Shown here: positions 19,634-64,000 of the stretch, piece after piece
How the letters are laid out: each line of letters starts with the position of its first letter
Numbering within the stretch: position 1 is the first letter of the stretch
Notes under the pieces: generated by a model
Databases searched by the model: none
Seen by the model: the letters and a program-made list of their open reading frames with translations, nothing else
What the model was told of the DNA's origin: nothing
From: Podospora anserina
Lineage: Eukaryota
NCBI GenBank assembly: GCA_017654855.1
Contig: CM030332.1
Coordinates: 7,440,001 to 7,504,000, forward strand
Direction of reading: 5' to 3'
DNA length: 64,000 bases
Translations under genes and position numbers: made by a program

Positions 19634-21207
19634 CCTTGTGAGGAAGCAAGACTGTCGGGGGCCTGATACTCGGCGGTATGTGGTTGATGAAAGTTGACCC
19701 CTACAAGAAACAGCTCGTGAGAGAAGCTATACTTGTTCGGGGCAGGCTGGATGCACGAGAGGGTCTGGTGTCTATCCTTGATTGGTACGGCAAAGCAAAG
19801 CATGCGGCAAAGTCATGAACTATGTCATAGCAAAGAATAAAAGGGTATGGCAGAACAAAGTTTGAGATTCGATTCTTCGAAGATCTGTTGACCTAGCGGT
19901 GCTGGCAAAGATTCAAGAATGAACGACGTGTTCGGGGTATGCTCCTCTGCCCCTATCGATGGTGATGATGTGGGAGGGGGTGAATGATACCTAGGCAAGC
20001 CCCGGCGAGGAACGATCAGAAGGCCGCCGAAATGATACGAGAAGACAAAAGCCGGCTGGAACGTGGAGTAGGAGGCAATGGGGGGAAGGAGCGGGTGAGG
20101 GAAGCGGGAGACGGCGGACCCGCGAAATGAGGAACAACGACAGATATAGCAGGAACACCCCTGAGATCAGCGAGACTCGAGAGAAAATCTCCGACATTCT
20201 GCCTGCCACCTCATATCTATCAGGGTGTCTGAACTGAAGTGGAAGGGGCGATGGAACCTGGAGCGGGACAAGTTCCTCAACGTCGCCCGAGAATGGCGTC
20301 AGGTTAGGTAGTAGCACATGGAACGAGAGATATCGGTCTTGTCTGGGGCGGGAAAGGGCGAAGAGGACGAGGGGCTCCGCTCTTGGGAACCGTCGAGTCC
20401 CCGGCCTCCCGATGTTCCGTCCTTCTGCTCAGGATGGAAGGAGCATGCCTGTGCTGCCTGGAACAGCTTGGATGGGACTGGAGAGAAGGAAGTATGCATG
20501 TCCAATGTGTTAGCATCAGATGTGGACACATGCTGGAGATAATGCAATACCTCCCTAACGGCAGAGACTCGAAATGAAGTCTTCTCATGCCCCCCTGCTC
20601 TGGATCTTTGTCTAACACTCGGTTTCGGCCTGGAGCGACAGAGAATCCATCTGAAATCGGCCTGACTTACTTCTTGGGTGACTCTGGAGAATCCATGTCC
20701 TCTGTGATGATGGTGATGGCGGTGGCCTTTCACTCTCCTCAAAGCGGTGAGGAGGGTTTGGATGAGACGGGAACAGCGAGTGGATGGCTGAGCGGGTGCA
20801 CCTTGGGCAGCCCCGCCCAGGATTCTGTTTGCTCCTGCGCAGAGTAAGGCAAGTGAACGCAACTGTTGGCAAGATGGCACACAGAGAAGAGGGAGAAACC
20901 GTAGCTGATTGGGAACACCCGCCCATTGTGGGAGCTGCCGCTGTCAGGCCTTCCCGATCCCCGACGTCTTGTTTTCTTTTCTCTAATGCTTGTTTGGGTG
21001 GGAGGTTCGCTCTGTCAGCCACGCCTTGCCTGTCTTGAAATCACATGGCAGCTTCAGTCAGTTGATTGATGCTGGGGTTGCTGATTATCCCGGTGACCGG
21101 TAATCCTAGCTCTGGTCCATAATATCGGTTGTTTCTGCCTGTTTTCTCCAAGGGAGTCTGTTCATCCCAAAAAGCCCACAACCATGAAGTGAAACTTGTT
21201 CACCCCG

Positions 21208-41500: not shown

Positions 41501-43303
41501 CAGACAGACAGAGGTCCATCTCACATTTTGCCTTGGCGAGTATGCCACGCCCGCTCGTGAGATTAAGCTCGTGTGGGTGGGTGTGGGATGCTGCACGTCA
41601 GCCCTAAATAAACGATGAAAAGATTCGGCAGGGTGTAGGCATCACTTTGGACCCCTGGGGTATAGTCTGTTGGCTGGAATAAAAGGGCCTGACGCCACAA
41701 GAGCCCCAACCCGCAGCAGCGTCATGATAGGCGAGCTTCAGCTCAGGGGCACCTGAGGCGGCTCCGGAGGGCGGTGACCTTAGGCAGCGCGATATGGTGA
41801 TACTTGGTTGGATCACTCATCCTTTATTGCTGTTCTTTCTGCCGAGCGAGAGGGTTCATCGTGGTGGAGGCAGGTAGCTGCACGTCAGATCCTTACTTGT
41901 TGTGGTGGTTTGGGGGCGATCGGATGGAAGCTTGAGAAGTTTTGAGAGATCCCATGCTATGGTGTGGTTGGGGCCGAGAGGCCCTCAGAATACCTTTTGT
42001 ACAGGGAGGTCTTGACGGCGGTGGTGTGATGGTTACCAGCACGAGTTGGGTGGGATAGATACCTATCTGCTTCTGACGTGATTTCGAACCGGTGTACATG
42101 ATGCATACTGTATTCATATATCAACAAGACGAGATGACGTGAGTCGGTAAAATATAGTAAGGTTCTGACTTCACGAAGACCAATGATGAAATCAACAAGC
42201 ATAGTTGCCGTAGGTGAGCACGGAAGATGAGGGATAAATCAGAAATGAGGCTTAAAGACATGGTGAAATTCCTGTATGGTTTGACGTCGTTCCTGTCAAC
42301 TCGAGAGAGACATCTAAGTCTTGTACGGTAATCTCGTAATCTTGGACGCTGGTCTTGTTGTCGTGAGGCATGGAAGGTATCTTGTACCATACTAATGATA
42401 TCATGGACGAGCCTTGTGCCCAAGTTAATCTGTCTGGAAGGCAATTCTATTCACGAGTCTTGAGAGTTTTAAGAAGCCTTTGGGGACAAACTTAAGCTGT
42501 TGTAATGCAAGTGAGACACGGCTTTCCATATGCCTACTTCTCTTAGCAAAGCCTGTTTAAATTCACCTAGCCACCTACCTACCTACCAGGTAGGCAGCAG
42601 AGAAAACCATCAGTCTAATTGGTCTGAGGGACGCCAGATTGGCCTGCAAATGATGCTGGTCCCCGTGTTGAAGACAATCCCCAGAGCTTCGGGAATTTCG
42701 GGAGAATCGTAGCAAAGTATGAGGACTGCATCTTCCAGCGTGGTGTTGTGGTGGAGTTTTGTCATTTCGGGTGAACTGCTCTATTGCGTGGCGGGCTGTG
42801 GAACCGGTCAACTAGCTGAGAATCTTGGCTTTTCTGGTTGTCCATAAGAGTTCTTCTGTATTTCCAGATTCAAAGTTTGAAATGCTGATACACGTCAAAT
42901 TTTCCATATCTCTTTCCGCAAGCAATGGAGAAAACATCACGATCTCATGGCTTGGTGTTGAAGGTTACACTCAGGGGTTCATGTCTTAGCAAAACCCAAC
43001 GTCCTCGCTTGGCTCATTTTAATGCGTTCTCGGCGCCTGGGGAAACGTCTCCGCCGAGACGATGATCCCCTGCAAAGATGTTGATTACAACCGAGGGGAC
43101 GTTGATTTTCCCCTACACTGTGAGGTTGCAAGCGAAAGTGCCGGTGTTAGGTACACAATATCGACTAATCTTTTCCACCACTAAGTTTATAGAGTAAACA
43201 AGATCCCTATAAATCCACGATTTATAATTCCATCTTTTTTTAAATATGGGCTTTCTTTTATATAAATTTTTATTGTATTTTAAAAAACTAATACTTCGCT
43301 ATA

Positions 43304-43649
43304 TGTCACGGACTTAATATAAGTGGGGAGCGCGGGGCGCGACCTGTCCAATCACTGAAACGGAAAAGTAGGGAAGTTAGATTATCACTAGCTTTCGGTG
43401 AACGACGAGTGATAATCGATATTATTACTGGTAATAATAGTGATAAATAGGTTTATATATACGGAGGAACTGGCTAGTGTAGATAGATAGTTCCGTAGTA
43501 TACAATACAAGTCACAATCGTGGTATCTTAGCTATTGTGATTAAGACAAGCTATTTGTTATACACTATTTAGCTGTACCGAACCAGAATTATTTAGAAGT
43601 GCCTTCAACCAGTGTCCCTTTCAGAGGTTCTGGATAGGGGTTCGTCACA
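43304..43649 (+). mobile_element. Solo LTR, family A variant 1 (346 bp; possibly Podospora crapaud-type)
   Basis: TGTCAC...GTCACA termini, TATATATA box at ~43454; the 3' ~200 bp are near-identical to ~45000-45201. The family name comes from recalled architecture, not from an alignment. Confidence 0.82.
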
Positions 43650-43741
43650 ATAATACTATGTATTTTAATTATGTTAGCTAGTGAGCCCTGATAGGCCTAT
43701 AATATAGAACCTATACAGGGTTGCTGTAAAATACAGCAGTG

Positions 43742-44749
43742 TGTCACGGGCAGGACAGGTGGACAGAATAATGACAGTAATATTCGGCTATGCTACAGTC
43801 TGGGCTCTATTCCGTCGGGTACGGGCAGGCTCTATTGTCAAGACGTAGCTCAAAGAGCTACAAACAGGTCTCGCGGCAGCGAGATGCGAAGTCATTCAAG
43901 TCGCATTAGCCCGTGCTCTGCACGTGCCAAGCTCCATCACTGGATTAACGACGGTTACGGTGCAACCGCCGTGACAGTATCCCCCCTAAGTGCGGAGCTC
44001 CGTCGATGTACTATCTTGGTTCAAGGGCGGGGCTTCTCAGGGTAGCGGCGGTGGAAATTCCGGACAACTTCTTTTACGTGTTCCAAGTAGTCTGCAGGCA
44101 CTTCGGTGGGTTAATTGTATCCAGTCCACTTTACGGTATACTTAAGACGGGGGTAACCTCCTCGGCCACGGCGATCCTAACGGGAGTCGAGAATATCTTT
44201 AACTTTAAACTTTTTTATTCTATCGATTTCCACTAGTAGTAGGGGGTTTTATATTTAATTTAGCTAAGGGTTATTGGATATAGGGCGTAATAAACTAATA
44301 AAAATACTAAATAGTTTTTTATTAAAGTAAGTAAGTTTAGTTAATATACGTACGGACTAATAACCTTAATAATCTTAAAAAGTCCTATATTTTTTTAATT
44401 AAATTTCTTTTATAAGCGGAGCGTTTTAATATTACGGATATCGAGCTAAACTTTTTAATTAACGTAGTACTTACGGGCAAGCTTACGTTTCCGGTTAATA
44501 TATTCCTTTTAGCGGGCCTAGGCTAAATAGATTTCTAATTTAGGGAATTCGTGGATCTCTTATATCCTCGATATAAATTAGTCGGCGTCTTTAGTTTTTA
44601 GAGATTTATCGGGTATAATAAATTTAAATCCTATACGGAAGTAAAAATTATAGTTAATAAAGAATAATGTTATTTTAATATTTTTATTTAAAATATTATT
44701 TAAAATAAATTCCGTGAGTAATAATTATATTGTTTAATTGTTTTATAAG
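43742..44749 (-). mobile_element. 3' end of a chromoviral Ty3/gypsy retrotransposon: 235-bp 3' LTR (43742-43976), PPT, RIP-degraded integrase C-terminus with chromodomain
   Basis: LTR bounded by 8-bp inverted repeats TGTCACGG/CCGTGACA; minus-strand PPT AGGGGGGATAC abuts it. Minus translation of ~44232-44020 reads VEID..[59 protein letters not shown]. Confidence 0.9.
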
Positions 44750-45201
44750 TGTTACAGTTAACTTAACGGCAGGTCGCGCCACATGTAGGGCGTAGGTCGC
44801 CCCTAGCTAATCATTAAGGAAGCCAGGGAACAAGCCAATCAGGCTAGGACAAAAGTGCTATGGCGCTAAAGCTCACGAGTAGTCTGCAGGATACAAGATG
44901 CTAAGGGTAATCAGAGGCATAGCACGACGAGCACGTTGCAGGATGTAATGTGCTAGGGGTGATCGGGGCCATAGCAGGGTGAGCACCTCACGGTCCCAAG
45001 GTCTATATATACGGAGGAACTGGCTGGTGTAGATAGACAGTTCCGCAGTATACAATAACAAGTTACAATCGTGGTATTTTAGCTATTGTGATCGAGATAA
45101 GCCATTTGTTGTGCACTATTTAGCTGCACCGAACTAGGATTATTTAGAAGTTACCTTTAACCAGTATCCCTTTCAGAGGTTCTGGATAGGGGTTCGTTAT
45201 A
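44750..45201 (+). mobile_element. Solo LTR, family A variant 2 (452 bp)
   Basis: TGTTAC start, GTTATA end (RIP form of GTCACA); 3' half homologous to ~43450-43649, 5' half unrelated. Confidence 0.82.
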
Positions 45202-46079
45202 TATAGTTTAAAAGCCTTTATAAAAATCCGGTTATATTTATAAATAAAATTTAGGTTTTAATAATACTAACTAAAGTTCTAATTTTATATTATTTCTTTA
45301 TTATTAATAATATTAAGGCTTTAAGTTTCTATAACCTATAATTAAATATTTTATTCTTTACGGATATAAGTTTTACTCTTAATTTTATAAAGGGCTATAT
45401 AATTAGCGCGAATATATTATATAAAAGAAAGTTAATTAAAGCTTATATAATAAAAAAAAAGTAATTAAAAAAATAAAGGCGGAATATAACGGTAAGGATC
45501 GAGGTAATACCTTTTCTATTAATTAACTTTTATAAGTATTTAAGGGACTAGTTAATAAAAAAAATATTTATCTTTAAATAAATAACGGAGGAACTAAAGG
45601 AAAAGAATAAAGGAATTAAGGAACTAAATAAAGGAGTTAAGTATTCTTTACTTAATTTTATTTTAAGGGAATTAAAATTACTATTATTAAATTATTATTT
45701 AACGTTTAATATTATTTTTTATAAAAATAAAAAAAAGGGGGATATTAAAAGTAAGGGAGGAAAGAATATTAATAATTAGAAGGAAGGAAAAAAGGGAGGT
45801 ATAAAGGATTACTAGAAAGAAAAGTCTTTATTTTAGCTTAGAAGAATAAAAATTATAATAAAAACTCTAACTTCGGACGAAATATCTAGGAAAAAACAAC
45901 TACCACCGACCTTCATAATAGGTCTATACCTAATACTATTAATAATACCGTCGCTACTACTATTAAAAATATTTTCGCCGTTTAATTAAAGGACTAATAT
46001 AATAACTTTATTTAAGCCCGATATTACTTTTATATACTTAAAGATATTTAATTAATCCCTTACTTAATTAAATTAATAT
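45202..46079 (+). mobile_element. Internal fragment (post-protease region) of the oldest copy of the Ylt1-like Ty3/gypsy family
   Basis: Colinear with ~55064-55931, differing mostly by C/T and G/A transitions; interrupted at 46080 by the LTR of another copy. Confidence 0.88.
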
Positions 46080-49000
46080 TGAAATGGTGAGAAAACACAC
46101 AAAACAACCACAACACTACAAATATACCCTCAACAGGTCTCAGAATAAACACACCTGCGTGACAGTAACTCGCTCGCAGGCCGCACTTTACGTAGGACAA
46201 AGAAAAGACACTATGGGCTCGCAAGCCACATAATAAGCACCGGATTGGCCTAATTAGAGGGCTAGAATTACCTGTACGCGTGTAAGGTATAAAATACGAA
46301 GAAAAGAATAAAAGTCGATGTCCTGTTTAAAATAGAATGTCCGAAGTAAACCGTTTATATATATAACCCCTGAACCCCTAAGGCCTCTAAGAGCCCCGCT
46401 TCCTTATTTATACTTTTAGGCTTATAACCGTACCCCAAACTAAACCTCCCTTCGTATTTAATTATTATAAATTAATAAGTAAATATATATATAAAAAAAA
46501 AATCTTTTATAAATAAAAAAAAAAAAATATCGTTTAATAAAAAAAAAGGAAAATAATATAATCTTACTATCCCTTTATCCATTCTCCTTTAATTAAAAAG
46601 AAAAGTATTTTTACTTTTCGGATCTTAAAATATATTTCCGTCCTTATCGAACTATTATAATTAATAACCTAACGACTTCCTCCCTTCGTTTTTAAAAAAC
46701 TTTAGAAGTTTATTTTTATTTTATAAAACTAAGTATATAATTAAGCGAAAAGTATATTATTAATAATCTTAAATAGTTATAAGTAAAAGAACGGGTAATT
46801 ATAAATTTAGAGAAGAGCGGTAAGTTTATTATTATAAAAGTACGGAACTTAAAAAAGGTTATTACTTTACTTAATTATTAAAAGTTATTTAATATATTAT
46901 TTAATTTAAACCCTTTATAATTAAAAGAAAAACCTATAATATATTTATTTCTTTTAATAATAATAATTAAAGTTAACGGAGAATTAAAAAAGAAAATAAA
47001 CCGGGGAATTAATAAAGATTTAAAAGGAAATAAAAAGGTATTTAGTAAGTTAAATCCTTCCGCGTTTATTAAGTTCTTTAGGCCCTTCTTTCTTTATTTT
47101 TTATTACGTACCTTCTAATTAAATTTATAATTTAAAAACTTTTTTATATAAATTATTTATAATTTTATTATTTTTTTCCCCGTAACGCTTATAGTTTTAT
47201 AATTTTTATAATAATAATCTCCTTTCTAAACCTTTATTACCGTTAAATCCTTTTCTTTACCGTACGAAATACCTTTTTAAAAATAAATACAGTAATACTT
47301 TAAAACCTAAAAACTATATTTTTACGTCCCGCCCTATTTACTATAGGCTAGCTTTTTTACTTTTATATTAAAACTATAGTAAAAAGCGTAACGGATATAA
47401 AATACTAAATAAAAAATAATATTAACTTAATACCCTTTTTAATTCTTTAATAAATCTATATAAATTAAAATATTAATAGTAACGTCGTAAATATTTATTA
47501 CTTAATAACTTCTGTTATTAATATAAATAGGGAGGACCTAATATCGTTAATTAAAAGCGTTATAATTATTATTAAATAAAAAAAAATATATTAACGATTT
47601 TATTATAATAGAGTTTAAAAGCTCTTTAAGGATCTATATATAATATTTAAAGATTTCTTAAAGAAAATACCGAAAAGTATAAGTAAAGACCGAGCTAATA
47701 AATTATTATTTAATTTTTAATTAACTTTAAAGGTTATATATAGTATAAATAAAAGAAATTATATAAATATTATAAATATAAATCTAATTAAAGGGGGTTA
47801 TTATTTTTAAATTAAAAAAAAAATATTTAATAATATTAATCGAAAATTATTTTACGAAAATAATATTAATTTAGTCGGGCTGCTTTTTTATAATATAATT
47901 TTTTAAGTCGGTAATTAAGTTAAAACGAAAACGAATAAATTAAAGAATATTATTACTTTAAAGAAGGAAAATATTATACGGGGGACTAAAGCTATAGACC
48001 CTATCGATACTTTAAAAGCGCGTTTTCTAAATAATTTTTTTAATAAAATTATTAAGAGGGCCGAATTTCTTAATAATAATAAATTTTTTTTATAATATAT
48101 TGTAAATAAACTTTATAAAAAGCGTTAATAATATTATTTTATAAAAATTAAGAGGGAGTAATATATAATATAATTTATAATTAAAGGGTTATTGAAAGGA
48201 AAGTAAAGAATTTTTTTAAAATAAAGAGTTAAAAAAAAAAAAGATTTTCGGTAAATCTTTATTTTTTATTATTTATTTAATTTATAAAGTAAAATTATTA
48301 AATAATTACGTAAGTCGTTTAAAAAGGAAAAAATATTTTAATAAATCTCCTTCCTATAAAGGTTTATAAAACTAATTATACCGTTTTATTTTTTAATTAT
48401 AAATACTTATACTAATTCTCTTTATTTTTATTTACTCTTTATTTTTTTTAATATTTATTAATTATTTTTTTTAATAGCTTTTTTTTTAAAGAAACTTATT
48501 ATTTCGTTTAATTAAGCGGTTAACGACTTTACTATTTAAGTATTTATAACTTTTTTCGTTAAAAAACTTTTTAATTAAATTAAAGGAATTTTTAATTTTA
48601 CTATATATAATTAGTCCGAGGTTAGTATAGACCTTACTTAAAAACTTTTATTTACTACCTTTATTTATTATTTTATTAACCTTACCCGTACTTCTAATAA
48701 TTAAAGCGTTATTTATAAAAGGTATATTTAAATTCGGCGTCCTACTTACGTTTATAACTTTATTATATTTAAAAATATTAATATTTATTATAATATTTTT
48801 TTCCCCTATTAAACTACTTTTTAATATTTTAAAATTTTCCCTTTAAATCCTAAATATATAATTACTCCCCTTTACTTTAAATAATTCCTTTTTAATCCAA
48901 TAAAAAAGGAAAGTAAAAAAGAGTAATAATTATTTTTTAAAAATATTAATACGGATAAAATTATTATTAATTATATTTTTAAAGCATTATTAACCGGTTC

Positions 49001-51362
49001 CGTTAAATAGATTTTCGTTAAACGGTTTAATAAATAGTTTTTCGGGCGTTAGTTCTTTAAAATCGTTAAGCGGGTTTATCGCTCTAAAAGTTTATTTATT
49101 TAGGTTACCGGGTTACTATAAGTACCGCCCTCCTAATTAAACTTAATTTAATATTAATATATTAAATTTAATTATATTAATTTATATAATAAGTACGATT
49201 AAAGTTATTACCGGTTTTTTATAATATTCCTCGATAGAATTAAAATTAAAATAATATAATTATACTTCGGTTATATAGAAAAAGAGGATTTCGATTAAAA
49301 ATATAGAAATTATTAATATAAAAATATTTATTATTTATAATTTAATATTAATAAAAATAATTTTTACTTTAAGGATTTTAATAATAGTAAGTTATTAAAG
49401 TTAAATTATAGTACCGTAAATTTAATTTTTAATAATAAAGAAATCGATTAGGATTAAGAGTAAGAAGAATAGCGGGTTAAGTATAAAGAGTTTAGGAAAT
49501 AATAAATAAATAAAAAAAAGGAAAAAAAAAAAGAAAAAGAATAATTTTCTACTTCTTTAAATTAAAAGAAAGGGTATAAAGAAAAAAGTAAATCGGAAAA
49601 AAAAATAATAAAAAAAGAAAAAAAAAAATTAAAAATTTAATATAATAATCTTTATTTTAATTAATTACTTTCCTTAATATTTTTCTTTTTTTTAAAAATA
49701 AATAATTTTTATAACTTTATTTTTATAATATAAACTTTAATATTTTTTTAAAGAAAAATAATAATTATAATATTTTTATTATTATTTCCCCCTAATTATT
49801 TAAAAAATTCTTTAATCTACCCTTCTTTAAGATTACCTTTATACTTTTACCCTTCTTAAATCTCTTTTATACCTTAATATTTTTCCGTTTTATTTAAGTT
49901 TTTCCCCTAATTATTATTTTTTTTAATATTTTTTTTATTATTTTTTTATTTTTATTTTTATTTTTTATTATATTTATACTTTTCTTTACTTTATTTTTAG
50001 GTACTTACTTAATTTTCTTTAATCCTAACTATATATTTATATTTTTTTTATTTATATATATATTTTTTAATCTAAAAAACTTTTTTACTTTATTTAATAT
50101 ATAAGAAACTTATAATAATATTCTATTTAATATTTTTAAAAAGTAATAAATATTATTTAATTCGACCTTCTTTACTTTAAAAGGGCTATCCTAGCGGTAC
50201 TATAGCTTCCTTACTATATTTATATTTAACTTTCTATCTATTTTATATATTAATATTAAGTCCCCCTTTTTAATTATATTATTCTTAAGCTTAATACTAT
50301 AAATCTTTTTTTTATTTTTTCTTACCGTAGCTTTTTATTTTACTATATTAACCCTCTTAATTACTAAAGTTAAATTTATTTTTTAGGATTTTAATAGTCT
50401 TACCTTTACTTTTATTAAATTTATAATCGCTCTTTCCTTCTAGTATCTCCTTAATTTATCGAAACTAATTTTTTTTTACTAAACAACTCTCTATAACGGT
50501 ACGTCTTTTTCGATCGGCGTAATAAGGTTAAACTTATATATTAAATAAAAAGTATTATACTTATAAATACCTCGTATCGTAATTTTATTAATAAATAATA
50601 TATAAGGGAGTTACTACTTTTACTTTTTCCCCGTCCTATTTATTATTTTTATTAGTATTAATATAATTAAAATATAATTAAACTCCGTTATTTTATTTAC
50701 TTTTATATTATAAAGTAAAACTATTATTTAAAAAACTTTTAACCTTTTTAAAATTTTAATAGTTTCTTTTCTAAATTCTAATCCGCCGTCCACTACTACG
50801 ATTAAAAAGTAACCTTATCTAAAAATAATATTATATAGAATAAAGTTTTTAACCCTAAAAATTTTATTTAAACTTAAAACTTTCGTTTTTAAATATTTAA
50901 TTAAATTATCCTTTGTTTTTAGAAAGTATATTTTTTTTCCCGAAACCGTTAATAAAAACTAAACGTTTAAATATTATTTTATAAATAAAATAATTAAAAG
51001 TTTAATATATAAATATTAATTTTTTTAATATTTCGGGCTTTATTATTAATATTATTTATATATTTTAATTTAAATTTTAACGTTAATGTATATACCTTTC
51101 TAATAATAATTTTTTATTATTTAAATATAAATAACTTCCTATCCTTTATAACTTATTTTATTATAATATATATTAAAAACTTTTTTCCGCTCGATTAAAG
51201 GATTAATAATTCTCCTAAAGGGAAAGCCTCTTTTATTTAATTTAAAAAATAAAACTCTATTTTCGAAAATTATTTTTAAAATATTATTTTTAATAGTCTA
51301 AACGTTAAATTTCGTTTTAATTTTTAACTCCGTATTAATCGTAAGGAACTTGGTAATAGTAT
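46080..51362 (-). mobile_element. 3' part of a second copy of the Ylt1-like element: 3' LTR 46080-46442, PPT, extra 3' region, integrase; RIP-inactivated
   Basis: 363-bp LTR is the reverse complement of 62868-63230; the whole segment is the reverse complement of 57944-63230 apart from transitions and small indels. Confidence 0.92.
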
Positions 51363-51725
51363 TGGTTTGGGGTGCGGCCACAGGCCTGAGAGTATGAGTA
51401 AGGAAGCGGGGCTCTCAGAGGACTCAGGGGTTCAGGGGTCATGTATATAAGCGGTCTGCTTCGGACATTCTATTTTAGACAGATCATCGACTTTTATTCT
51501 TTTCTTCGTATTTGGTGCCTTGCACGCGTGTAGGTAATTCTGGCCCTCTGATCAGGCCAATCCGGTGCTTATTATGTGGCCTGCGAGCCCATAGTGTCTT
51601 TTCTTTGTCCTACGTGAAGTGCGGCCTGCGAGCGAGTCACTGTCACGTAGGTATGTTTATTCTGAGACCTGTTGAGGGTATATTTGTAGTGTTGTGGTTG
51701 TTTTGTGTGTTTTCTTACCATTTTA
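51363..51725 (+). repeat. 5' LTR of the complete element
   Basis: TGGTTTGGGG...CCATTTTA (terminal CA changed to TA), followed by the PBS after 2 nt. Confidence 0.95.
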
Positions 51726-51727
51726 AA

Positions 51728-51746
51728 TGGAGGTCGTGCCCGGGTT
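51728..51746 (+). promoter_or_regulatory. Primer binding site TGGAGGTCGTGCCCGGGTT (tRNA 3'-end complement, probably tRNA-Gln)
   Basis: Starts with TGG 2 nt after the LTR; its complement ends ...GACCU-CCA, as eukaryotic tRNA-Gln acceptor ends commonly do. Confidence 0.75.
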
Positions 51747-54700
51747 AAGCAAAGTTTAGGGTCCAAACTAGACTTATAAGCCGTGGGTATTAAAGGAAGT
51801 ACGAAGCTACGAACGATAATAAGTACCAATAACTTTATTAAACCCCGCGAGGTTTAACGGAAATAATTTTTCTTTGTTTAATCGGATAAAGCTTTTTTAT
51901 TATCGACTAAACTCTAAACTTTTTACCCGCGAGTAGAGAGTTAAGTGTATAGTCCGGATAGGACCGGAAAATAAATTAAGAATATTAATTAAAATTAATT
52001 CGTTAGTAAACCTTATTTCCGCGTTAATTATTAAAGTCCTTTTTTATTTTTAATTAAAAGGAATCCTCCTAGTATATTATTTAATAATAATAGATAATCG
52101 TAGGGATTTCCGGGTTAATTTAATTTAGGATATCGGGAACTTAAAAGTAAGGAAACGAAAATACTTTCCTTTTAATTTAAGTAAATATAATTTATATTTA
52201 TATATTAAAATTATAAAGGATAACCGTTTTTATATTTTTAATAATATATATAAAGAAAAAACTATACTATTAATATAAATATAATAGTAATTATCGAGTA
52301 TCAATATATTTAATAATATCCTACTTATTACTTCGGTTAGTCTTCCCGGCGATAATTAAGGGTATTAAACTTTTACGGTTCGTTCCGTAATAAAAATAAC
52401 TATTTTAGCGGCTAAGTTCCCGGAATTATTACTATTCGTCCTTTCCCCGGCTACGAACCGCGCTTACCTTAAAGATACTAAGACCCTTCGCCCCCTTTTT
52501 AATTAAAGTAGCCCGACTATAAAGCTTAACGCTCCTAACGTATTAGGTAAACCTCGTACCTACCTAAATCCTATTACTTAGAATTATATTATACTTTTTA
52601 TTTAGTATACCGGATATCCCGCTCCTTTTTTTAGGTTTGCGTATTAATTTTAGTAACCCGGATACTTATATCCTATAGGAGTTTACTCCGATTATCGTTA
52701 CTTCTAAAGGTCCCCTACGTTTAATTATTTAACCCCCTATTTTATAATACCTATATATTTTTTTTAATATAAATTCCTTAATCTAAAGAAAGTTAGTTTT
52801 AAAAATAATTTTAAAAGGAAGTACTTTATAGAATATTTAAAGTATTTCGAGAATGCCTATAAAGAATATTATATTATAGAATTTATTTTTTACGTTCGTA
52901 AGTTTAAATCTTAATATAATTTCGATATAAGAAAATAGATTAATAAATATATAAACTTACCTATACCTACCGATATTTAATTTATTCTAATTATCCGCCT
53001 TAAACGCCTCTTTAAGATCTATAACCCCTAATAAAATAAAGATATCTATAGGGAATTAAATAACTTTTACGCTAAAGTTATTTCTAAAAATATAAGCGAG
53101 TTAAAGAAAGTTATTTTTAATTACTTTAAATTATTTTCTTGAGTACCGACTGGGGAGAAAGAGGTAGTAAAAGCTAGGGTTATTAGTTACTTTTAAATAA
53201 AATTCTTTAAATTAATAAGAATAACCTTTATTAACCGAAAAGGATCCGAATATCGTTTAAGATCTATAAATTTTATTATTTAAAGTAATTAGATTAATAA
53301 TATAATCGAAAATAGGTATAACGTAGGAGGAAGAATTTATAAGGAAAATAAATTAATTATTATACCCTCCCCTATTACTTTTAATTAGGCGGTTAAAATA
53401 TTCGATTAGTATATAGCGGTTAACGTTATAATAAATAGAGAAATAATATTATAGTATTTAAAGATAAATATTTATAGTAGTTTTTTTATATTGGGAAACG
53501 GTAAATTTAGGATAATAAGGACCCGCGTTTAATATTTAAAAAACTAAGTATTTTATTTTTTAGATTTTAGTATTAGCCCTAATAGGGAAATAGATTTGTT
53601 TTTTAATACCTTCCTTATTATTAATACTAAAACTTAGTTCGGAAGATTAGGGAGGTAATACCGCGATAGCCCTCCCTTATTAAGAAGGTGCTTTTAGTAC
53701 GGTAAGACTGGTTATTACGCTAAATCGACGGAGTATCCGAAGAAGGAGTATAATAAGGCGTAAGGACTGTACTATACTAAAGGAAGTAGAGTATATATCG
53801 GTAAGAAAGAGTAGCTGGAAAATAAAAAAGTATAATTTAATTAAAAGGATATAAGGAAGGCGTAGCGTAAAGGGAAAGTTAGTAATTTAGTTTGTATTAT
53901 AATTTCGTTAAAACTAAAATTAAATAGGGCCTATAAAGTTTATACGAAATAAGTTAAGTATTAGGAAACTCGTAAGGGTAAGGGATATAAGCCCGAAGTT
54001 TTTTTAATTAAAGGGAAGGAATAGATAGTTACTTAGATAGTTAGGGCTATAGATATTAAGTTAAATAAGCTTTATAGGTACTTTAAATTTTACGTACCGT
54101 TTAATAAGAATTTAATTAGTAACTATATTATTAGGAATGCTTTATAACGTTACTTAGTAAAAAAATAGTCGCTTAAAAGTATTTTAAAGCGCTTTAATAA
54201 TACTTTAATAATCGTTTATAATTAAGAGGTAAAAGTAGGGGTAAGCGCGTAAGGAGCGAAAAGAGTAAGGATCGAGGATTTACCGAAAGAGGATATAAAT
54301 AATTTAGCTTTAGTCGAAAATCTAAAAATAGTATTTACCTCCGCGTAAAAGAAATTAAAGGTAATTAAGGAGGGAGTTTCGTTCGATTAAGGGGATAGAG
54401 TCCGGAGTGGCTTAAGGTTACTTAATAGTAAAGTAAAGGACTTTAAAGATTATATTACCGAAAAAATTAAAAAATATATTTATAATTAAATTAAATTTAT
54501 ACTAAAAAAGCATTATAAAATTTTATTTATATTTATTTACCGGTTAATAAATTACGTAAAAAATATAATTAAAAATATTAAAGTAATTAAGTAGTATAGA
54601 TCTTCTAAAAGTACTTCGGATAGAAAAAGAAAAGTTTTATAAAAGGGGGAGGCTTTACCGTTAACGGTTCGGACAAATTTTTAGACGGCTAAACATAGTA

Positions 54701-57700
54701 AAACTCCTCCGTCTAATTAGAGGAAAATTGTTCCTACTTTATACGGGATTACGGCAAATAATAAGTATAGTATAATCGAGGGAGGTATCTGGGAGAAGAT
54801 TATCGAAGGTAAGGTTTAACCGGGTAATAGCCTAGAAGAGCGATTGCGGACTCTATTATTTACGCCTATTAGCCGGCTTTCCGGTAGTAAACGAACTTTC
54901 TTAAAAGCCGTTACTCGAACCTATAACGTTCTATCGTTATATTATAATTTCGTTTTATTAACTTTAAAGAAGGTATTAATAATATTAAATATAGGCTCGG
55001 AGTATAATTTAATTAGTAGGGCTATAATTAAAAGGTTTTGTTTACCGATAATATCGATAAACCTATAATTTAAAAGCCTTTATAAAAATCCGGTTACGTT
55101 TATAAATAAAACTTAAACTTTAATAATATTAATTAAAATTCTAATTTTATATTATTTTTTTATTATTAATAATATTAAAGTTTTAGGTTTTTATAACTTA
55201 TTATTAAGTATCCCGTTCTTTACGGATACGAGCCTTACCTTTAATTTTATAAAGGGCTATATAATTAACGTAAATATATTATATAAAGGAAAGCTAATTA
55301 AGGCTTACGTAGTAAAAAAGGAGGTAATTAATAAGATAAAGGCGGATTATAATAATAAGGATCGAGGTAATACCTTTCCTGTTAATTAACCTTTATAAAT
55401 ATTTAAGGGATTAGTTAATAAAGGAGTACCTATCCCTAAGTGGATAACGGAGGAATTAAAGGAAAGGAATAAAGTAATTAAAGGACTAAATAAAGGAGTT
55501 AAACGTTTTTTATTTAATTTTATTTTAAAGGAGTTAAATTTACTATTATTAAATTATTATTTAACGTTTAATATTATTTTTTATAAAAATAAAGAAAAGG
55601 GGGATATTAGGAGTAAGGGAGGAAAAAATATTAGTAATTAAAAAGAAAGAAAGAAGGGAAATATAAAGAATTATTAAAAAGAAAAGTCTTTATTTTAATT
55701 TAGAAAAATAAAAATTACGATAAAAACTTTAACTTCGGACAAAATTTTAAGGAAAGAACGACCGTTATTACCGACCTTTATAATAGATCTATATTTAGTA
55801 CCGTCGTTATTACTATTAAAGATATTGCTACCGTTTAATTAAAAGACTAGTAGGATAACCCTATTTAAGCCCAATATAGTATCCTTATACTTAAGGATAT
55901 TTAATTGGTTCCTTATTTAATTAAGTTAGCGTAGCCTCTTTACTATATAACTATATAAACGTTATTTACCTTCGCTCCCTTCTAAAAAAAAAAATAATAT
56001 AAAAATTAACCTAATTACTACTTTTAAATAGGCTTAACTAACGCCTACGGATATTATTATTATTATTATAATATATAAAAAAGTAAATAAAAAGGTAAAG
56101 CCGGTTAATAATATTAGGTTAAATAGTAATATTTTTAAAGGAAATCCGAACTAGAAAGTAAAGAGATAGGCGGTAATTAAAGAATCCCTATAATATAATT
56201 TAAAATTTAATAATATTATAGTCTTTAAATTTTTTAAAATAATTAAAGGGTTACGCTTTATTCTAAAACGCTTAGCCGATTTAATTAAATAAACTATTAA
56301 TATTTTAATAAATTAAGAGGTTAAAGTATTTATAATAATTTTATTTATAAGGGAAGCTATATTAATATAGAACTTTATTGAATATAGATAGATCTTTAAA
56401 AAAGTCTTTTTTATTTAATATATTAAGACTATCCTTTATAAAGTATAGTAAAGTAAGTTTATTTCGATCCCAAAGTTATTTATAAGGAAAGTTATTAATT
56501 TTTTTAGGGAATAAATTAAAAAAAATATTATTAAGGAAGCGTATAGTCCCTACCGTAATAATTAGTTCCTAATAAAAAAAAAAAATAATAGCCTCCGTCT
56601 AATTAACGATACTTAAAGATATAATAAAGTTATATAACGAGATACCTTTATCTTATTAAGTATTAAGGAGTTTAGCGAGGACTTTATAAGGTACTTTATT
56701 ACTTCCTTACTTAACTTTTTTTCCGGATATAATTAAATTAAATTAGCCTTAACGAGCCGAAACCTTATTACTTTTATAATATTTATCGGCCTATTTAGGA
56801 TATATACCTTACTTTAAGGAGCTACTAACTTAATAGTTTAATTCTAAAAAGCCGTAATTAAAGTTTTTTAAAATTTTATCCTATAAATATATTAATTATA
56901 TTTAAACGATATTATAGTAAAAGGGTTAAGGTAGGACTATAATAGTAAAAAAGAAAGGTTAGGAATTAGGAAGTAGGTCCTAGAGTATTTAAAGAATATT
57001 AACGTAGTTTTATTTAACTATAAGCTTATAGGAACTATAATTGTAGCCGTAAAATCCCTTTAGTATAGACGGGAAGCTATTATCTTTAGTTATTCCTATA
57101 TACTAGACGGGTATTTCCCTAATTAAATAAAAATAATAAAAATAAGGGAATAGCGAACTTACTATAATCTTAAGGATATTTATGCTTTTCTAAGGATTAC
57201 CGGTTATTATCGGCTATAAGTACCTCTCTTTAATTTAATCGTAGTTCCGTTATATTTTTTAATAAGGAAGGATACAAGATAGGAATGGACGGAAGCTTAA
57301 TAGGGTACGATAGAGTAGCTTACCTTTCTAATTATAAAGGTACTATATTTAATTTCTTTAACGTTTAATAACGATCGTTTCGGTAAAATCTTTATTATTT
57401 TTAATATAAGTTTAACGGAGTAAAGAGTAGTAATTAAATAAGTAGGATTTAATAGAAAACGGTACCCTTATTAGTTTAAAAGTAGTATTTAAAGCCCGGC
57501 TAAATAAAGGTATAATATTATTAAGAGGGAGTTAAGAGGATTATTATATATTTTAAGGAGATTTAGAAGGTATTTTTTCGGGGTATATTTTACGGTAGAA
57601 ACGGACGCTTAAGTAGTAATTTATTAAGTTTAAGGGGCGGCTAGTAACGTTCCCGGCGCTTTAATAATAAAATAGTTAAAATAGATTAAACTTTTCGACT

Positions 57701-60700
57701 TTATAATTATTTATATCTTTAGGAGTAAGAACCTTATAATAAACGTACTATTAAGAAAACTACTTAGCCCCTTTAATTTAAGGGAGAAGGAGTTAGAGCT
57801 AAATATTAATAATAAGGTTAATGTAAGGATCTAGAAAAACGATATCCAGGAAATAAATATTTAACGGATAAATATTAAAAAAAAAAAAAAGAAAGTTATT
57901 AAGTAAGGCCCCTACTTAAATGGACTATAGTTTCCTTATTCCTATACTATCGCCGAGTTCCTCGCGATTAATACGGAGCTAAGGGCTAAAACGAGGTTTA
58001 ATATTTAAATTATTAAGAATAATATTTTAAAAATAATTCTTAAAAATAAAATTTTATTTTTTAAATTAAATAAAGGAAGCTTTCCCTTTAGGAGAATTAT
58101 TAACCTTTTAATCGAGCGGGAAAAAGTCTTTAATATATATTATAACGAAATAGGTTATAAAGGACGGGAAATTATTTATACCCGAATAATAAAAAATTAT
58201 TATTAGAAAAGTATATACGTTAACGTCGAGGTTTAGATTAAAATATATAAATAATATTAATAATAGAGCCCGAAGCGTTAGGAGGATTAGTACTTATATA
58301 TTAAACCTTTAATTACTTTATTTACGAAGTAATATTTAAACGTTTAGTTTTTATTAACGATTTCGGGAAAAAAAACTTACTTTTTAAAAGCGAGGGATAA
58401 CTTAATTAAGTATCTAGAAACGAAGGTCTTAAATTTAAATAAGGCTTTTAGGGTTAAAAATTTTATCCTATATAATATTATCCTTAGATAGGGTTACCCT
58501 CTAATCGTAATAGTGGACGGCGGATTAGAATTTAAGAAGGAAGCTATTAAGATTTTAGAGAGGCTAGGAGTTTTTCGGGTAGTAGTCTTACTTTATAACG
58601 TAAGAATAAATAAAGTAATAGAGTTTAGTTATATCCTAATTATATTGATATTAATAAAAATAATAAATAGAACGGAGAAGAAGTAAAAGTAGTAGTTCCC
58701 TTATATATTATTTATTAATAAAATTATAATATAAGATATTTATAAGTATAATACTTTTTATTTAGTATATAGGTTTAACCCTATTACGCTAATCGAAAAG
58801 GACGTACCGTTATAGAAAGTCGTTTAGTAAGAAAAGATTAGCTTTAATAGATTAGGGAAATATTAAAAGGAGAGAGCGATTATAGATTTAATAGAGGTAA
58901 AGGCGAAATTATTAAAATCCTAGGAGATAAATCTAACTCTAGTAGTTAAGAGGGTTAGTATAGTAAAATAAAAAGTTACGGTAAAAAAGAATAGAAAAGG
59001 GATTCGTAATATTAGGTTTAAGAATAATATAATTAAAAGGAAGGATTTAATATTAGTATATAAAATAAATAAAAAGTTAAATATAAGTGTAGTAAGGAAA
59101 TTATAGTACCGCTGGGACGGCCTTTTTAAAGTAAGGAAGGTTAAATTAAGTAATATTTATTATTTTTTAAAAATATTAGATAAAGTATTATTACGAGTTT
59201 CTTATACGTTAAATAGGGTAAAGAAGTTTTTTAAATTAAAAAATATATATATAGATAAAGAGGATACGGATATGTAGCTAGGATTAGGGAAAGTTAAGTA
59301 AGTACCTAGAAATAAAGTAAAGGAAGGCGTGGATATAGTGGAAGATAAGGATAAAGAAAAAGAGATAGTAAAAGAAATATTAGGGAGAATAATAATTAGG
59401 GGGAAGATTTAAATAGAACAGAAGAATACTAAGGTATAGAAGAGATTTAAGAAGGGTAAAAGTATAAAGATAGTCCTAAAGAAAGGTAGATTAAAGGACT
59501 TTTTAGGTAATTAGGGGGAAATAATAATAAAAGTATTATAATTATTATTTTTCTTTAAGAGGATACTAAAATTTATATTATAAGAATAGAGTTATAGAAG
59601 TTATTTATTTTTAAAAAAAGGAAAGATATTAAGGGAGGTAATTAATTAAAGTAAAGATTATTATATTAAATTTTTAATTTTTTTTTTTTTTTTTTTTATT
59701 ATTTTTTTTTCCGATTTACTCCTTTCTTTATACCCCTTTCTTTAATCTAAAAAAATAAAAAACTATTTTTTTTTTTTTTCTTCTCTTTCTTCTTATTTAT
59801 TTATTATTTCCTAAGTTCTTTATACTTAACCCGCTATTTTTTTTATTCCTAATCCTAATCGACTTCTTTATTATTAAGAATTAAGTTTACAGCACTATAA
59901 TTTAACTTCGATAACCCACTATTATTAAAATCTTTAAAGTAAGGGCTATCCTTATTAATATTAAATTATAAATAATAAATACCTTTATATTAATAATTTC
60001 CGTATTTTTAATCGAGGTTCTCTCTTTTTATATAACCGAAATATAATTATATTACTTTAGTTTTAATCTTATCGGGGAACGTTATAAAAGACCGGCGATA
60101 ATTTTAATTATATTTATTATATAAATTAATATAATTAAATTTAATATATTAGTATTAAACTAAGTTTAATTAGGGGGGCGGTATTTATAATAATCCGGTA
60201 ACCTAAATAAATAAACCTTTAAAACGATAAACCCGTTTAACGATTTCGAAAAACTAGCGCCCGAAGAATTACCTATTAAACCGTTTAACGAAAATCCGTT
60301 TAACGGAACCGATTAATAACGCTTTAAAAATATAATTAATAATAGTTTTATCTATATTAATATCTTTAAAAAATAATTATTACTCTTTCTTACCCCCCTT
60401 CTTTATTGGATTAGGGAGGAACTATTTAAAGTAAAGGGGAGTAATTACGTATTTAGGATCTAAAGGGGAAATCTTAAAGTACTAAAAAATAGTTTAATAG
60501 GGGAGAGAAATATCGTAATAAATATTAATACTTTTAGGTATAGTAGAGTCGTAAATGTAAGTAGGACGCTAAACTTAAACGTACCTTTTATAAGTAACGC
60601 TTTAATTATTGGGAGTACGGGTAAGGTTGGTGGGACGATAAGTGAGGGTAGTAAGTAAAGGCTTTTAAGTAGGGTTTATAGCGACCTTGGATTAATCGTA

Positions 60701-62867
60701 TATAGTAAGGTTAAAGATTCCCTCGACTTAATTAAAAAGTTTTTTAATAAAAAAGGTTATGGATACCTAAATAGTAAAGTCGTTGACCGCTTAATCGGAT
60801 GAAGTAATAGGTTTTTTTAAAGAAAAGGCTATTGGGAGGAAGTAGTTAATAAGTATTAAAAAAGATAAGGAATAAGTAGGAATAAAGAAAATTAGTATAG
60901 GTATTTATAATTAGAGGATAGAACGGTACGACTAATCTTATAGACCTTTATAGGAGGGAGACTTATTAGAGCGCTCTTTTCTCCTTAAACGGCTTACGTA
61001 ACTATTTAATAATCTTACCTTATAAGCTAGGTAAATAATAAAGAATAAAGACTTACCGAAAACCTTTTTCCCTCTTTAACTTTTTATTCTAAAAAAATTC
61101 CTTACTTCCCTCTCGATAACCCTTTAATTATAAATTATACTATATATTACTCCCTCTTAATTCTTATAGAATAATATTATTAACGTTTTTTATAAAGTCT
61201 ATTTACGATATATTATAGGAAGAATTTACCGCTACTAAGAAATTCGGCCCTCCTAATAATCTCGTTAAAGAAATTATTCGGAAAGTACGTTTTTAAAGTA
61301 TTAATAGGGTCTATAGCTTTAGTCCTCCGCGCAGTATTTTCCTTCTTTAAAGTAATAATATTTTTTAGCCTATTTATTTTAGCCTTAACCTAGTTACTAA
61401 CCTAAAAAATTATATTATAGGAAGGCGGCCCGATTAAATTAATATTATTTTCGTAAAATAATTTTCGATTAATATTATTAAATATTTTTTTTTTAATTTA
61501 AAAATAACGATCCCCTTTAATCGAACTTATATTTATAGTATTTATATAACTTCCCTTACTTATATTATATATAATCTTTAAAATTAATTAAAGGTTAAAT
61601 AGTAATTTATTAACTCGGTCCTTACCTATACTCTTCGGTATTTTCTTTAAAGAATCCTTAAGCGTTATATATAGATTTCTAAAAAGCCTTTAAACCTTAT
61701 TATAATAAAGTCGTCGATACGCTTTTTCCTGCCTAACGATAACTATAACGCCTTTAACCGACGATACTAGGTCCTCCCTATTTATATTAATAACGGAAAT
61801 TATTAAGTAATAAATATTTATAACGTTACTATTAATATTTTAGTTTATATAGACTCGTTAAAGGATTGAAAGGGGTATTAAGCTATTACTATTTTTTACT
61901 TAATATTTTATATCCGTTACACTTTCTACTATAGCCTTAACGTAAAAGTAAAGAGGCTAGCTTACGGTAAATAAGGCGGGGCGTAGGAATATAGTCTTTA
62001 GGTCTTAAAGTACTACCGTACTTACTTTTAAAGAAGTATTTTATACAGTAAAAAGAAGGATTTAACGGTAATAAAGGTTTAGAAAGGAAATTATTATTAT
62101 AGAGATTATAAGACCGTAGGCGTTATAGGGAAGAAAATAATAAGGTTATAGATAGTTTATATAAAAAGGTTTTTAAATTATAAATCTAATTAAAGGGTAT
62201 ATAATAAAAAATAAAGGAGGAAGGGCTTAAAGGATTTAATAGACGCGGAAGGATTTAACTTATTAAATACCTTTTTATTTTTTTTTAAATTTCTATTAAT
62301 TCCCCGGTTTACTTCCCTCCCTAGTTCTTCATTAGTTTTAATTATTATTATTAAAGGAAATAAATACGTTATAGGTCTTCCTTTTAATTATAAAGGGTTT
62401 AAATTAAATAACATATCGAATAACTTTTAACGATTAAGTAAAGTAATAACCTCCTTTAGGTTCCGTATTCTTATAATAATAAACTCGCTATTCCTCTTTA
62501 AGCTTATAATTACCCGTCCCCCTATTTATAATTACTTAAGATCGCTAATAATATACCTTTCGCCTAATTATATACTTAGTTTTATAGGATAGGAGTAGGT
62601 TCCTAAAGTTCCTTAAAAACGAAGGGAGGAAGTCGTTAGGTTACTAATTATAATAGTTCGATAGGGATAGAGGTATACTCTAAAATCCGAAAAGTAAGGG
62701 TACTTTTCTCTTTAATTAAGGGAGAATAGATAAAGGGATAGTAGGATTATATCGTTTTCCTTTCTTTTTACTAAACAATATTTTCTTTTTTTTTAGTTTA
62801 TAAAGGATTTTTTTCTTATATACGTATTTACCTACTGGTTTATAGTGGTTAAATGCGAAGGGAGGTT

Positions 62868-63230
62868 TGGTTTAGGGTGCGGCTATAGGCCTGAGAGTAT
62901 AAGTAAGGAAGCGGGGCTCTCAGAGGACTCAGGGGTTCAGGGGTTATATATATAAGCGGTCTACTTCGGACATTCTATTTTAAATAGATTATCGACTTTT
63001 ATTCTTTTCTTCGTATTTGGTGCCTTGCACGCGTGCAGGCAATTCTGGCCCTCTGATCAGGCCAATCCGGTGCTTATTATGTGGCCTGCGAGCCCATAGT
63101 GTCTTTTCTTTGTCCTACGTGAAGTGCGGCCTGCGAGCGAGTCACTGTCACGTAGGTGTGTTCATTCTGAGACCTATTGAGGGTATATTTGTGGTGTTGT
63201 GGTTGTTTTGTGTGTTTTCTCACCATTTCA
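62868..63230 (+). repeat. 3' LTR of the complete element
   Basis: Preceded by PPT GAAGGGAGGTT; ends CCATTTCA; same length as the 5' LTR, with transition-type differences. Confidence 0.95.
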
Positions 63231-64000
63231 GTATAGGAGTAAAAAGATTATAATTTATTTAAATAAGGGCCTTACTTAATAATTTTTTTTTTTTTTTAAT
63301 ATTTATTTATTAAATATTTATTTTTTAAATATTATTTTTTTAAATTTTTACGTTAATTTTATTATTAATATTTAACTTTAATTTTTTTTCCCTTAAATTA
63401 AAGGGGCTAAATAGCTTTTTCGATAATACGTTTATTATAAGGTTTTTACTTTTAAAAATATAAATAATTATAAAATTAAAAAGTTTAATTTATTTTAATT
63501 ATTTTATTATTAAAGTACCAGGAATATTATTAGCCGCCCCCTAGACTTAATAGACTATTATTTAAACGTCCGTTTTTACCGTAAAGTATATCCTAAAAAA
63601 ATACCTTTTAAATTTCTTTAAAGTATATAATAGTCCTCTCAATTCCCTCTTAATAATATTATATTTCTATTTAACTAGGTTTTAAATATTATTTTTAAAT
63701 TAATAAGAATACCGTTTTCTATTAAATTTTATTTATTTAATTACCGTTCCCTACCCCGTTAAACTTATATTAAAAATAATAAAGATTTACTAAAACGGTT
63801 ATTATTAAATATTAAAAAAATTAAATATAATACCTCTATAATTAAAAAAGTAAATTACTTTATTATATTTTATTAAATTTCTATTTATTCCTATCTCGTA
63901 TCTTTCTTTATTAAAAAATATAATAAAACTATAATTAAATTAAAGAGAGATACTTATAACTAATAGTAATTAATAATCCTTAAAAAAGTATAAATATCTT
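63231..64000 (-). mobile_element. Continuation (RNase H/RT region) of the interrupted minus-strand copy, running off the window
   Basis: Reverse complement of ~57173-57947; joins 51362 seamlessly across a single GTAT copy. Confidence 0.9.

Follow-up and report, generated by a model that had tools for sequence, protein, structure and literature searches.

The last third of a 64,000-nucleotide stretch of Podospora anserina DNA (assembly GCA_017654855.1, contig CM030332.1, positions 7,440,001 to 7,504,000; hereafter the window) contains a Ty3/gypsy long terminal repeat (LTR) retrotransposon, here called element A, in which approximately 3.2 kb of DNA separate the end of pol from the 3' LTR. This segment is very probably an integral part of the family, i.e., the normal 3' internal region of an 11.87-kb Ty3/gypsy family and not cargo private to one copy. 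The explanation that we favour overall, with a probability of roughly one in two, is that the segment is a family 3' region carrying an antisense additional open reading frame (ORF), of the type located between pol and the 3' LTR. That this antisense ORF, named ORF-Y, is or was a functional protein-coding gene is a separate claim, which we hold to be somewhat less likely than not.

Architecture of element A and its older copy

Element A has the organization of an LTR retrotransposon, with a direct pair of LTRs, a target duplication, a site resembling a primer-binding site and a polypurine tract (PPT). Its flanks, TAGTA and CAGTA, represent a 5-bp target duplication with a single C/T difference of the kind produced by repeat-induced point mutation (RIP), and its total length is 11,867-11,869 bp. 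The components of the element are the following:

51362..51723, plus strand: 5' LTR of A (boundaries +/-2 nt; 95.3% identical to 62867-63228)
51728..51744, plus strand: primer-binding-site-like 17-mer beginning with TGG, read from the sequence, 4 nt past the LTR
51745..54700, plus strand: block upstream of the expected gag
54700..59640, plus strand: gag-pol (protease?-reverse transcriptase-RNase H-integrase), destroyed by RIP
59640..62856, no strand assigned: 3.2-kb extra internal region, present in A and in the second copy, B
62857..62866, plus strand: polypurine tract, with the purine run GAAGGGAGG at 62857-62865, abutting the 3' LTR
62867..63228, plus strand: 3' LTR of A, from self-comparison; LTR length 362 nt

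The gag-pol region was identified with Pfam, tblastn and a RIP-aware alignment, in which a T may stand for an ancient C and an A for an ancient G, and which was calibrated to a negative mean score. Pfam detected RT_RNaseH at approximately 57406-57624 (E=9.6e-6, 26.2 bits versus a cut-off of 24.8), and gypsy polyproteins obtained in a protein search cover 56464-57822 when aligned by tblastn; the polyproteins colinear with A carry PF00078, PF17917/19, PF17921 and PF00665. In the RIP-aware alignment, residues 469-1399 (of 1405) of one gypsy polyprotein, P0001, were placed on 56107-59244 with a score of 331, whereas the reversed protein scored 57. The order reverse transcriptase (RT), RNase H and integrase is read from this colinearity and from the alignment, which reaches the C-terminus of P0001 at 59244. 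When the six stop-masked frames were compared with Pfam, A gave only RT_RNaseH (E<=0.1) and B gave nothing (E<=1), RIP damage limiting both searches, and the integrase was without a match in the frames of either copy. The start of gag at about 54.7 kb is extrapolated from the RIP-aware alignment.

The pol frame is stop-poor and purine-rich up to approximately 59.6 kb, and the end of pol is placed at 59.3-59.65 kb, hence the figure of about 59.6 kb given by the first-pass annotation, a model's reading of the sequence, is reasonable. Since the PPT lies at 62857, about 3.2 kb are left over, and the interval described in that annotation is borne out by the LTRs, the PPT, the alignment of P0001 and the stop-poor pol frame. 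The block upstream of gag likewise has few stops in the gag-pol frame (5-7 per 100 codons), and its codons are periodic, with purine fractions of 0.60/0.52/0.48 at positions 1, 2 and 3 (p=2e-7). This block may represent an additional sense ORF or else an N-terminal extension, and with approximately 3 kb of such sequence upstream of gag, the excess length of A sits at both ends of the element.

Element A is a nested insertion inside an older, inverted copy of the same family, copy B. In the self-comparison, 46076-51365 is the reverse match of 63234-57941 (84.8% over 5295 columns); the interior of B at 46444-51361 is the reverse complement of A 62866-57941, and B continues directly past the 3' LTR of A, at 63231-64000, a stretch that equals A 57948-57175. 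Two parts of copy B are relevant here:

46079..46443, minus strand: 3' LTR of copy B (89.9% identical to 51726-51362)
46454..49666, minus strand: 3.2-kb region in B, corresponding to A 59640-62856

Within the 3.2 kb only five small indels separate A from B, and the two segments are 99.72% identical in purine/pyrimidine coding (3218 columns). The segment moves with the element and is found in both copies without rearrangement, as anticipated when it was first described as colinear in the second copy and as part of the transposing unit. A third, truncated copy (fragment C, 45202-46075, plus strand) matches A 55064-55928 at 83%; it directly adjoins the LTR of copy B at one end and a repeat unit of another kind at the opposite end.

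These copies lie in an AT-rich block that occupies the final 21 kb of the window, where the GC content is 0.16-0.31 versus 0.50-0.59 upstream. In this block TpA/ApT is 1.33-1.49 and (CpA+TpG)/(ApC+GpT) is 0.10-0.18, compared with 0.58 and 1.24, respectively, in the gene-rich part. When A is aligned with B (6056 bases), 929 transitions stand against 8 transversions, and there are 10 small gaps totalling 20 columns; these near-exclusive C>T and G>A differences, together with the shifted dinucleotide indices, are the marks of RIP. Of the 398 C>T differences left between A (57175-63230) and B, 227 are in CpT and 104 in CpG, and of the 528 G>A differences, 291 are in ApG and 110 in CpG. At CpA, conversion has already taken place in A as well as in B, pointing to RIP at saturation. 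Because this saturation affects identical positions in the two copies, little is gained by de-RIPping from A and B, and merging them lifts the GC content only from 0.27 to 0.31. Every part of the element present in the window, in A and in B, is inactivated by RIP, and these copies are dead relics. Nonetheless, since their differences are almost all RIP transitions, the reading frames are preserved and the purine/pyrimidine pattern is untouched. A sharp isochore boundary was observed at 42000-46000: the GC content of 0.53 drops first to 0.31 and further on to 0.16-0.27, with a reversal of the RIP indices.

The antisense frame and its un-RIPped copies

The frames of the segment are named by their phase relative to pol, -0 being antisense and +1 its sense-strand shadow frame. 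Of the six frames in the merge of A and B, -0 contains the smallest number of stops, 75 among 1155 codons; frame +1 has 102, and the four unpaired frames have 106, 119, 123 and 121. At the stop rate of these four frames, the probability of 75 stops or fewer is 8e-6, and inside the segment the TGA count in -0 is zero. The first-pass annotation had reported antisense frames with few stops and had illustrated them with two peptides; the second peptide does belong to the depleted -0 frame, whereas the first comes from -1, a frame without depletion (121 stops). Stop and TGA counts by themselves cannot name the coding strand, because in pol, used as a control, stops are just as scarce in the antisense shadow as in the sense frame after RIP. 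Purine/pyrimidine codon and dicodon models trained on host ORFs misclassified pol and were dropped as strand discriminators, and the simple excess of purines at codon position 1 was retained for this purpose. The gene-rich part of the window has an uninterrupted host ORF of 2674 codons (11702-19726, minus strand) that served as training and control sequence.

Evidence for the antisense frame comes from an exhaustive HMMER search of the stop-masked -0 frame against 1.84 billion representative proteins, which gave three matches. P0013, of 113 aa, matched query residues 313-423 with 59% identity (E=2e-32), and P0014, of 110 aa, matched residues 442-549 with 56% identity (E=3e-31); the third match, a repetitive protein of 2201 aa, was disregarded. 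Outside the span of these two proteins, the -0 frame had no matches among the same representatives. The clusters to which they belong also contain P0017, which accompanies P0014, and P0016, in which P0013 is extended to 141 aa. All four proteins originate from assemblies of public runs (5-6 contigs, the longest of 11,513 nt); scans of metagenome contigs and of viral contigs contained no DNA encoding P0016 or P0014. The regions of the window that correspond to these proteins define ORF-Y:

61591..62013, minus strand: ORF-Y part 1, a RIP-mutated copy of P0016 (139/141 codons RIP-compatible)
61588..61590, minus strand: stop between the two parts, at which both P0013 and P0016 end
61219..61545, minus strand: ORF-Y part 2, a RIP-mutated copy of P0014/P0017 (109/109 codons RIP-compatible)
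47295..48089, plus strand (B is inverted): ORF-Y in copy B (tblastn with P0016, E=5e-34; with P0014, E=1e-33)

A codon of the window was considered RIP-compatible when C>T or G>A changes suffice to produce it from a codon that specifies the residue of the matching protein. This was the case for 248 of the 250 codons, the start codon being one of the two exceptions. The six stops of part 1 map to Gln (four), Trp and Arg, and the three of part 2 to Gln, Trp and Gln, so that all nine stops of ORF-Y in the window are RIP products (Gln 6, Trp 2, Arg 1). Therefore, P0016 and P0014 were translated from copies of the same family that escaped RIP. These source copies are hardly distinguishable from the ancestor of A and B: no more than one non-RIP change in each ORF separates them from it, which indicates that the family was active recently.

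In the un-RIPped copies, approximately 266 antisense codons (62013-61219) are open except for one stop, giving ORFs of 141 and 110 aa, and the antisense ORF is present in the two window copies that cover this part as well as in the un-RIPped contigs. The first-pass annotation had named a long intact consensus ORF with homologues in related elements as what would support its proposal; in the un-RIPped copies a stop stands between the two ORFs, and no joined form was seen. The purine fraction of ORF-Y at codon positions 1, 2 and 3 of the minus strand is 0.66/0.51/0.45 (p=5e-6), compared with 0.64/0.50/0.54 in pol and similar values in host ORFs. Its shadow frame on the plus strand would have, in 250 codons, one certain stop, five forced Trp and nine sites that are either Trp or a stop.

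Competing explanations for the segment

Several observations weigh against ORF-Y as an antisense additional ORF. The stop interrupts the frame in every un-RIPped form recorded (P0013, P0016 and their 6 contigs), and a joined form of 146-464 aa was absent among 5.8 billion proteins of 60-464 aa. In the same protein set, a profile built from the window and the un-RIPped sequences (A1) matched only the same two clusters, and the 1.84 billion representatives contained no relatives beyond these clusters. Inspection by eye of the visible AG sites showed no in-frame GT...AG intron that would remove the stop, although RIP may have erased the signals. The un-RIPped ORFs matched no Pfam family at E<=10, and their best matches in the PDB had E=0.22 and E=0.74, profile A1 giving nothing significant there; likewise, a PDB search with both candidate frames of the segment gave nothing significant. 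The recognition scores assigned by a language model were 1174 and 1512, while in the calibration of that tool 91 of 100 proteins of known families reach 2300, and single-sequence AlphaFold predictions had a mean pLDDT (predicted local distance difference test) of 39.3 and 44.4. ORF-Y spans about 0.8 of the 3.2 kb, i.e., one quarter of the segment, and at 60-68% GC it is not particularly unusual for a frame to stay open over such a length. Between copies there is at most one non-RIP change per ORF, too few for a test of selection, and the 20 rows of public runs with the stretch or a part of it (6 studies) list no RNA. Thus, from the earlier proposal of an accessory antisense gene, what stands is the presence of ORFs that are open in the un-RIPped copies; split by a stop and devoid of relatives, Pfam family and confident fold, they count as a candidate gene.

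Several of these facts lend weight to the alternative that we take most seriously, though it is still unlikely, in which the segment is a long non-coding 3' spacer or untranslated region, the antisense ORFs are open by chance in GC-rich DNA and entered the databases through a gene caller, and the periodicity is a relic or a coincidence. In its favour, the ORFs are orphan and split, and neither a domain, nor a fold, nor the language model recognizes them. The probability of finding one stop or none in 266 codons of random sequence ranges from 5e-6 to 2e-2 across 45-68% GC, and the upper value, 0.02 per frame and place, applies at 68% GC; also, 60926-61218, between the coding-like blocks, has no codon periodicity (p=0.9). 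However, at 45-55% GC that probability falls to between 5e-6 and 3e-4, and the periodicity of ORF-Y is as strong as that of pol and appears in the correct strand and phase. Moreover, the RIPped copies had singled out the stop-poor frame before any un-RIPped ORF came to light, and nine out of nine stops revert to Gln, Trp or Arg.

If ORF-Y is indeed an antisense additional ORF comparable to brtn of Boty or gene23 of Grande, its promoter could be located in the 0.8 kb between ORF-Y and the 3' LTR, or be the LTR itself, with transcription directed towards pol, and its product might modulate the replication of the element. This product could be a small protein, for which the stop would be spliced out, or two peptides; alternatively, it could be an antisense RNA that pairs with the 3' end of the genomic RNA.

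The remainder of the segment includes two other stretches with few stops:

59726..60925, plus strand: ORF-X, coding-like and most likely sense, in frame +1, one off pol, as judged by periodicity
62190..62600, no strand assigned: short stop-poor stretch (stops per 100 codons: 1 in the pol frame, +0, and 2 in its antisense shadow, -2; periodicity not significant)

The stops of ORF-X per 50 codons are 1, 4, 4, 5, 2, 0, 1 and 5 in frame +1 and 2, 3, 5, 1, 3, 0, 2 and 4 in the antisense shadow, while its purines by codon position are 0.60/0.49/0.46 on the plus strand (p=8e-5) and 0.51/0.40/0.54 on the antisense strand. Judging solely by this periodicity, 59.7-60.9 kb is probably a second coding-like stretch, on the sense strand. 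In this part, the coding strand thus seems to be the sense one, in place of the antisense strand proposed by the first-pass annotation. The +1 reading of 60170-60925 had no protein match at 138-441 aa in a search limited by its word filter; this search is weak, since even P0014 shares only two exact 5-residue words with the window. A bolder interpretation is that of a complex retroelement with three orphan coding regions, namely about 1000 codons before gag, a sense ORF after pol and a convergent antisense ORF, of which un-RIPped and possibly active copies persist in the species. We regard it as improbable; if true, it would be a fungal counterpart of the accessory-gene sets of retroviruses.

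Two features next to the end of pol bear on the origin of the segment:

59631..59639, plus strand: PPT-like 9-mer AAGGGAGGT just past pol; B holds the RIP variant AAGGAAAGT
59670..59830, plus strand: pyrimidine tract with a T-run at 59678-59710 (33 nt), where the strand switches from purine-rich to pyrimidine-rich

The 9-mer is the PPT-like motif that had been noticed directly after pol, and its position is confirmed. It flanks the segment on both sides, at 59631 and 62858, and is ancestral in both places; the window has four occurrences versus 0.77 expected. This arrangement would fit foreign DNA that was inserted antisense at the PPT, with duplication of the PPT, and fixed in the family long ago. 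Such DNA could have been a host transcript, retroposed or transduced, or else a mobile element of another kind, and the ORFs would be its decaying remains. The T-run, which reads as an A-run in antisense, is 38 nt away from the left-hand motif, and the strand composition flips exactly at this run. Nevertheless, the T-run is not adjacent to the motif, copy B retains a C inside it, and a third ancestral copy of the motif, (G)AAGGGAGGT, is found in fragment C at 45792-45800, equivalent to A ~55654, inside the gag-pol frame and in the position of a central PPT. The latter also weakens the earlier suggestion that the extra DNA was acquired between an ancestral PPT and the LTR. In purine/pyrimidine space, the repeats at the borders of the segment do not exceed the shuffled null (direct 25 and inverted 28, versus null maxima of 21-28 and 22-36, respectively). 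No transposase, RT or other Pfam domain was detected in the frames of the segment in A (E<=0.1) and B (E<=1), where RIP damage limits the search, or in the un-RIPped ORFs (E<=10), and no donor-like protein was found among the 5.8 billion proteins of 60-464 aa. Homopurine and homopyrimidine runs aside, the segment also resembles no other part of the window. Retroposition or transduction beside the PPT in the distant past is conceivable but unsupported, and a foreign origin in this broad sense seems to us quite improbable. A nested DNA transposon or a second LTR element was considered as a separate candidate and rejected, as neither terminal repeats above the null nor, within the limits set by RIP damage, a transposase or RT domain were found; the first-pass annotation had named a separate transposable element as what would overturn its proposal, and nothing of the kind was detected.

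Finally, a single long sense ORF in the env position (about 59.7-62.1 kb, frame +1), with the antisense ORFs merely as its shadow, is very improbable: frame +1 and the antisense frame are mutual shadows, both stop-poor at 59.7-60.9 kb, where the periodicity favours the plus strand as mentioned above, and further to the right the second codon positions are rich in pyrimidines, a possible mark of a hydrophobic protein, but over ORF-Y a plus-strand reading would contain one certain stop, require as many as 14 Trp among 250 residues and have a first-position purine fraction of only about 0.49; its stops at 60.8-62.0 kb amount to 35 in 404 codons versus 26 for the antisense frame, and its reading of 60170-60925 was the one that remained unmatched in the word-limited search.

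Relation to known elements and neighbouring repeats

Antisense ORFs located between pol and the 3' LTR are described for Grande (gene23), RIRE2, Retand, PvRetro13 and Boty (PMC7264820, PMC8365987). The first four belong to plants, i.e., maize, rice, Silene and Phaseolus, respectively (PMC7264820), and for Grande an internal promoter and a nuclear protein have been reported (PMC7264820). According to the same review, additional ORFs of this type encode orphan proteins, for which a role as accessory proteins or as regulatory antisense RNA has been proposed (PMC7264820). The plant ORFs, as described there, resemble the one of element A in position and orientation, in the orphan character of the proteins and in their presence in the copies of a family; they differ in that they belong to another kingdom and to different gypsy lineages.

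In fungi, Boty (BcGypsy1) of Botrytis cinerea and Sclerotinia carries the antisense gene brtn, credited to Zhao et al. 2011, Virology, in PMC8365987 and PMC7264820. This published case is an exception to the view, adopted by the first-pass annotation, that fungal Ty3/gypsy elements carry only gag-pol. P0016 and P0014 run opposite to gag-pol and lie in the interval from pol to the 3' LTR; on this ground the family of element A would be a further fungal case of this already known type. Boty/brtn was the only fungal element with an antisense ORF that turned up in the literature searched, which does not preclude others in print. In comparison with Boty, the ORF of element A is short and split by a stop, and the likeness is one of description; in addition, A exceeds Boty by far in size (11.87 kb) and carries further sequence before gag. 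With regard to ORF-X, the env-like sense ORFs that follow pol in Athila and Bagy2, as described in PMC7264820, offer a parallel, since ORF-X is also directly after pol and apparently sense; ORF-X is only a candidate for this class.

Another element of comparable size is RLG_Rolly of Leptosphaeria maculans, a heavily RIPped Ty3/gypsy element of 11,875 bp with an LTR of 235 bp, as listed in Table 4 of PMC3105345. It is close to A in length and shares with it the superfamily and the occurrence of RIP in AT-rich blocks; however, its LTR differs from that of A (235 versus approximately 362 bp), and the similar size is regarded as a coincidence only.

The accessory ORFs of LTR retrotransposons are poorly understood, and few fungal cases are available. 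The element in the window is dead and as a case of modest interest, but a second fungal family with an antisense ORF and with intact public copies would be a tractable system to distinguish between a protein and an antisense RNA. Furthermore, because RIP leaves the purine/pyrimidine pattern in place, codon periodicity and the test of RIP compatibility can recover reading frames and family membership, and both work on sequence that ordinary searches no longer read.

At the edge of the AT-rich block, 43449-45197 comprises a unit of 1.75 kb with direct repeats of 199 bp that are 90% identical. This unit may be a small LTR-type element.

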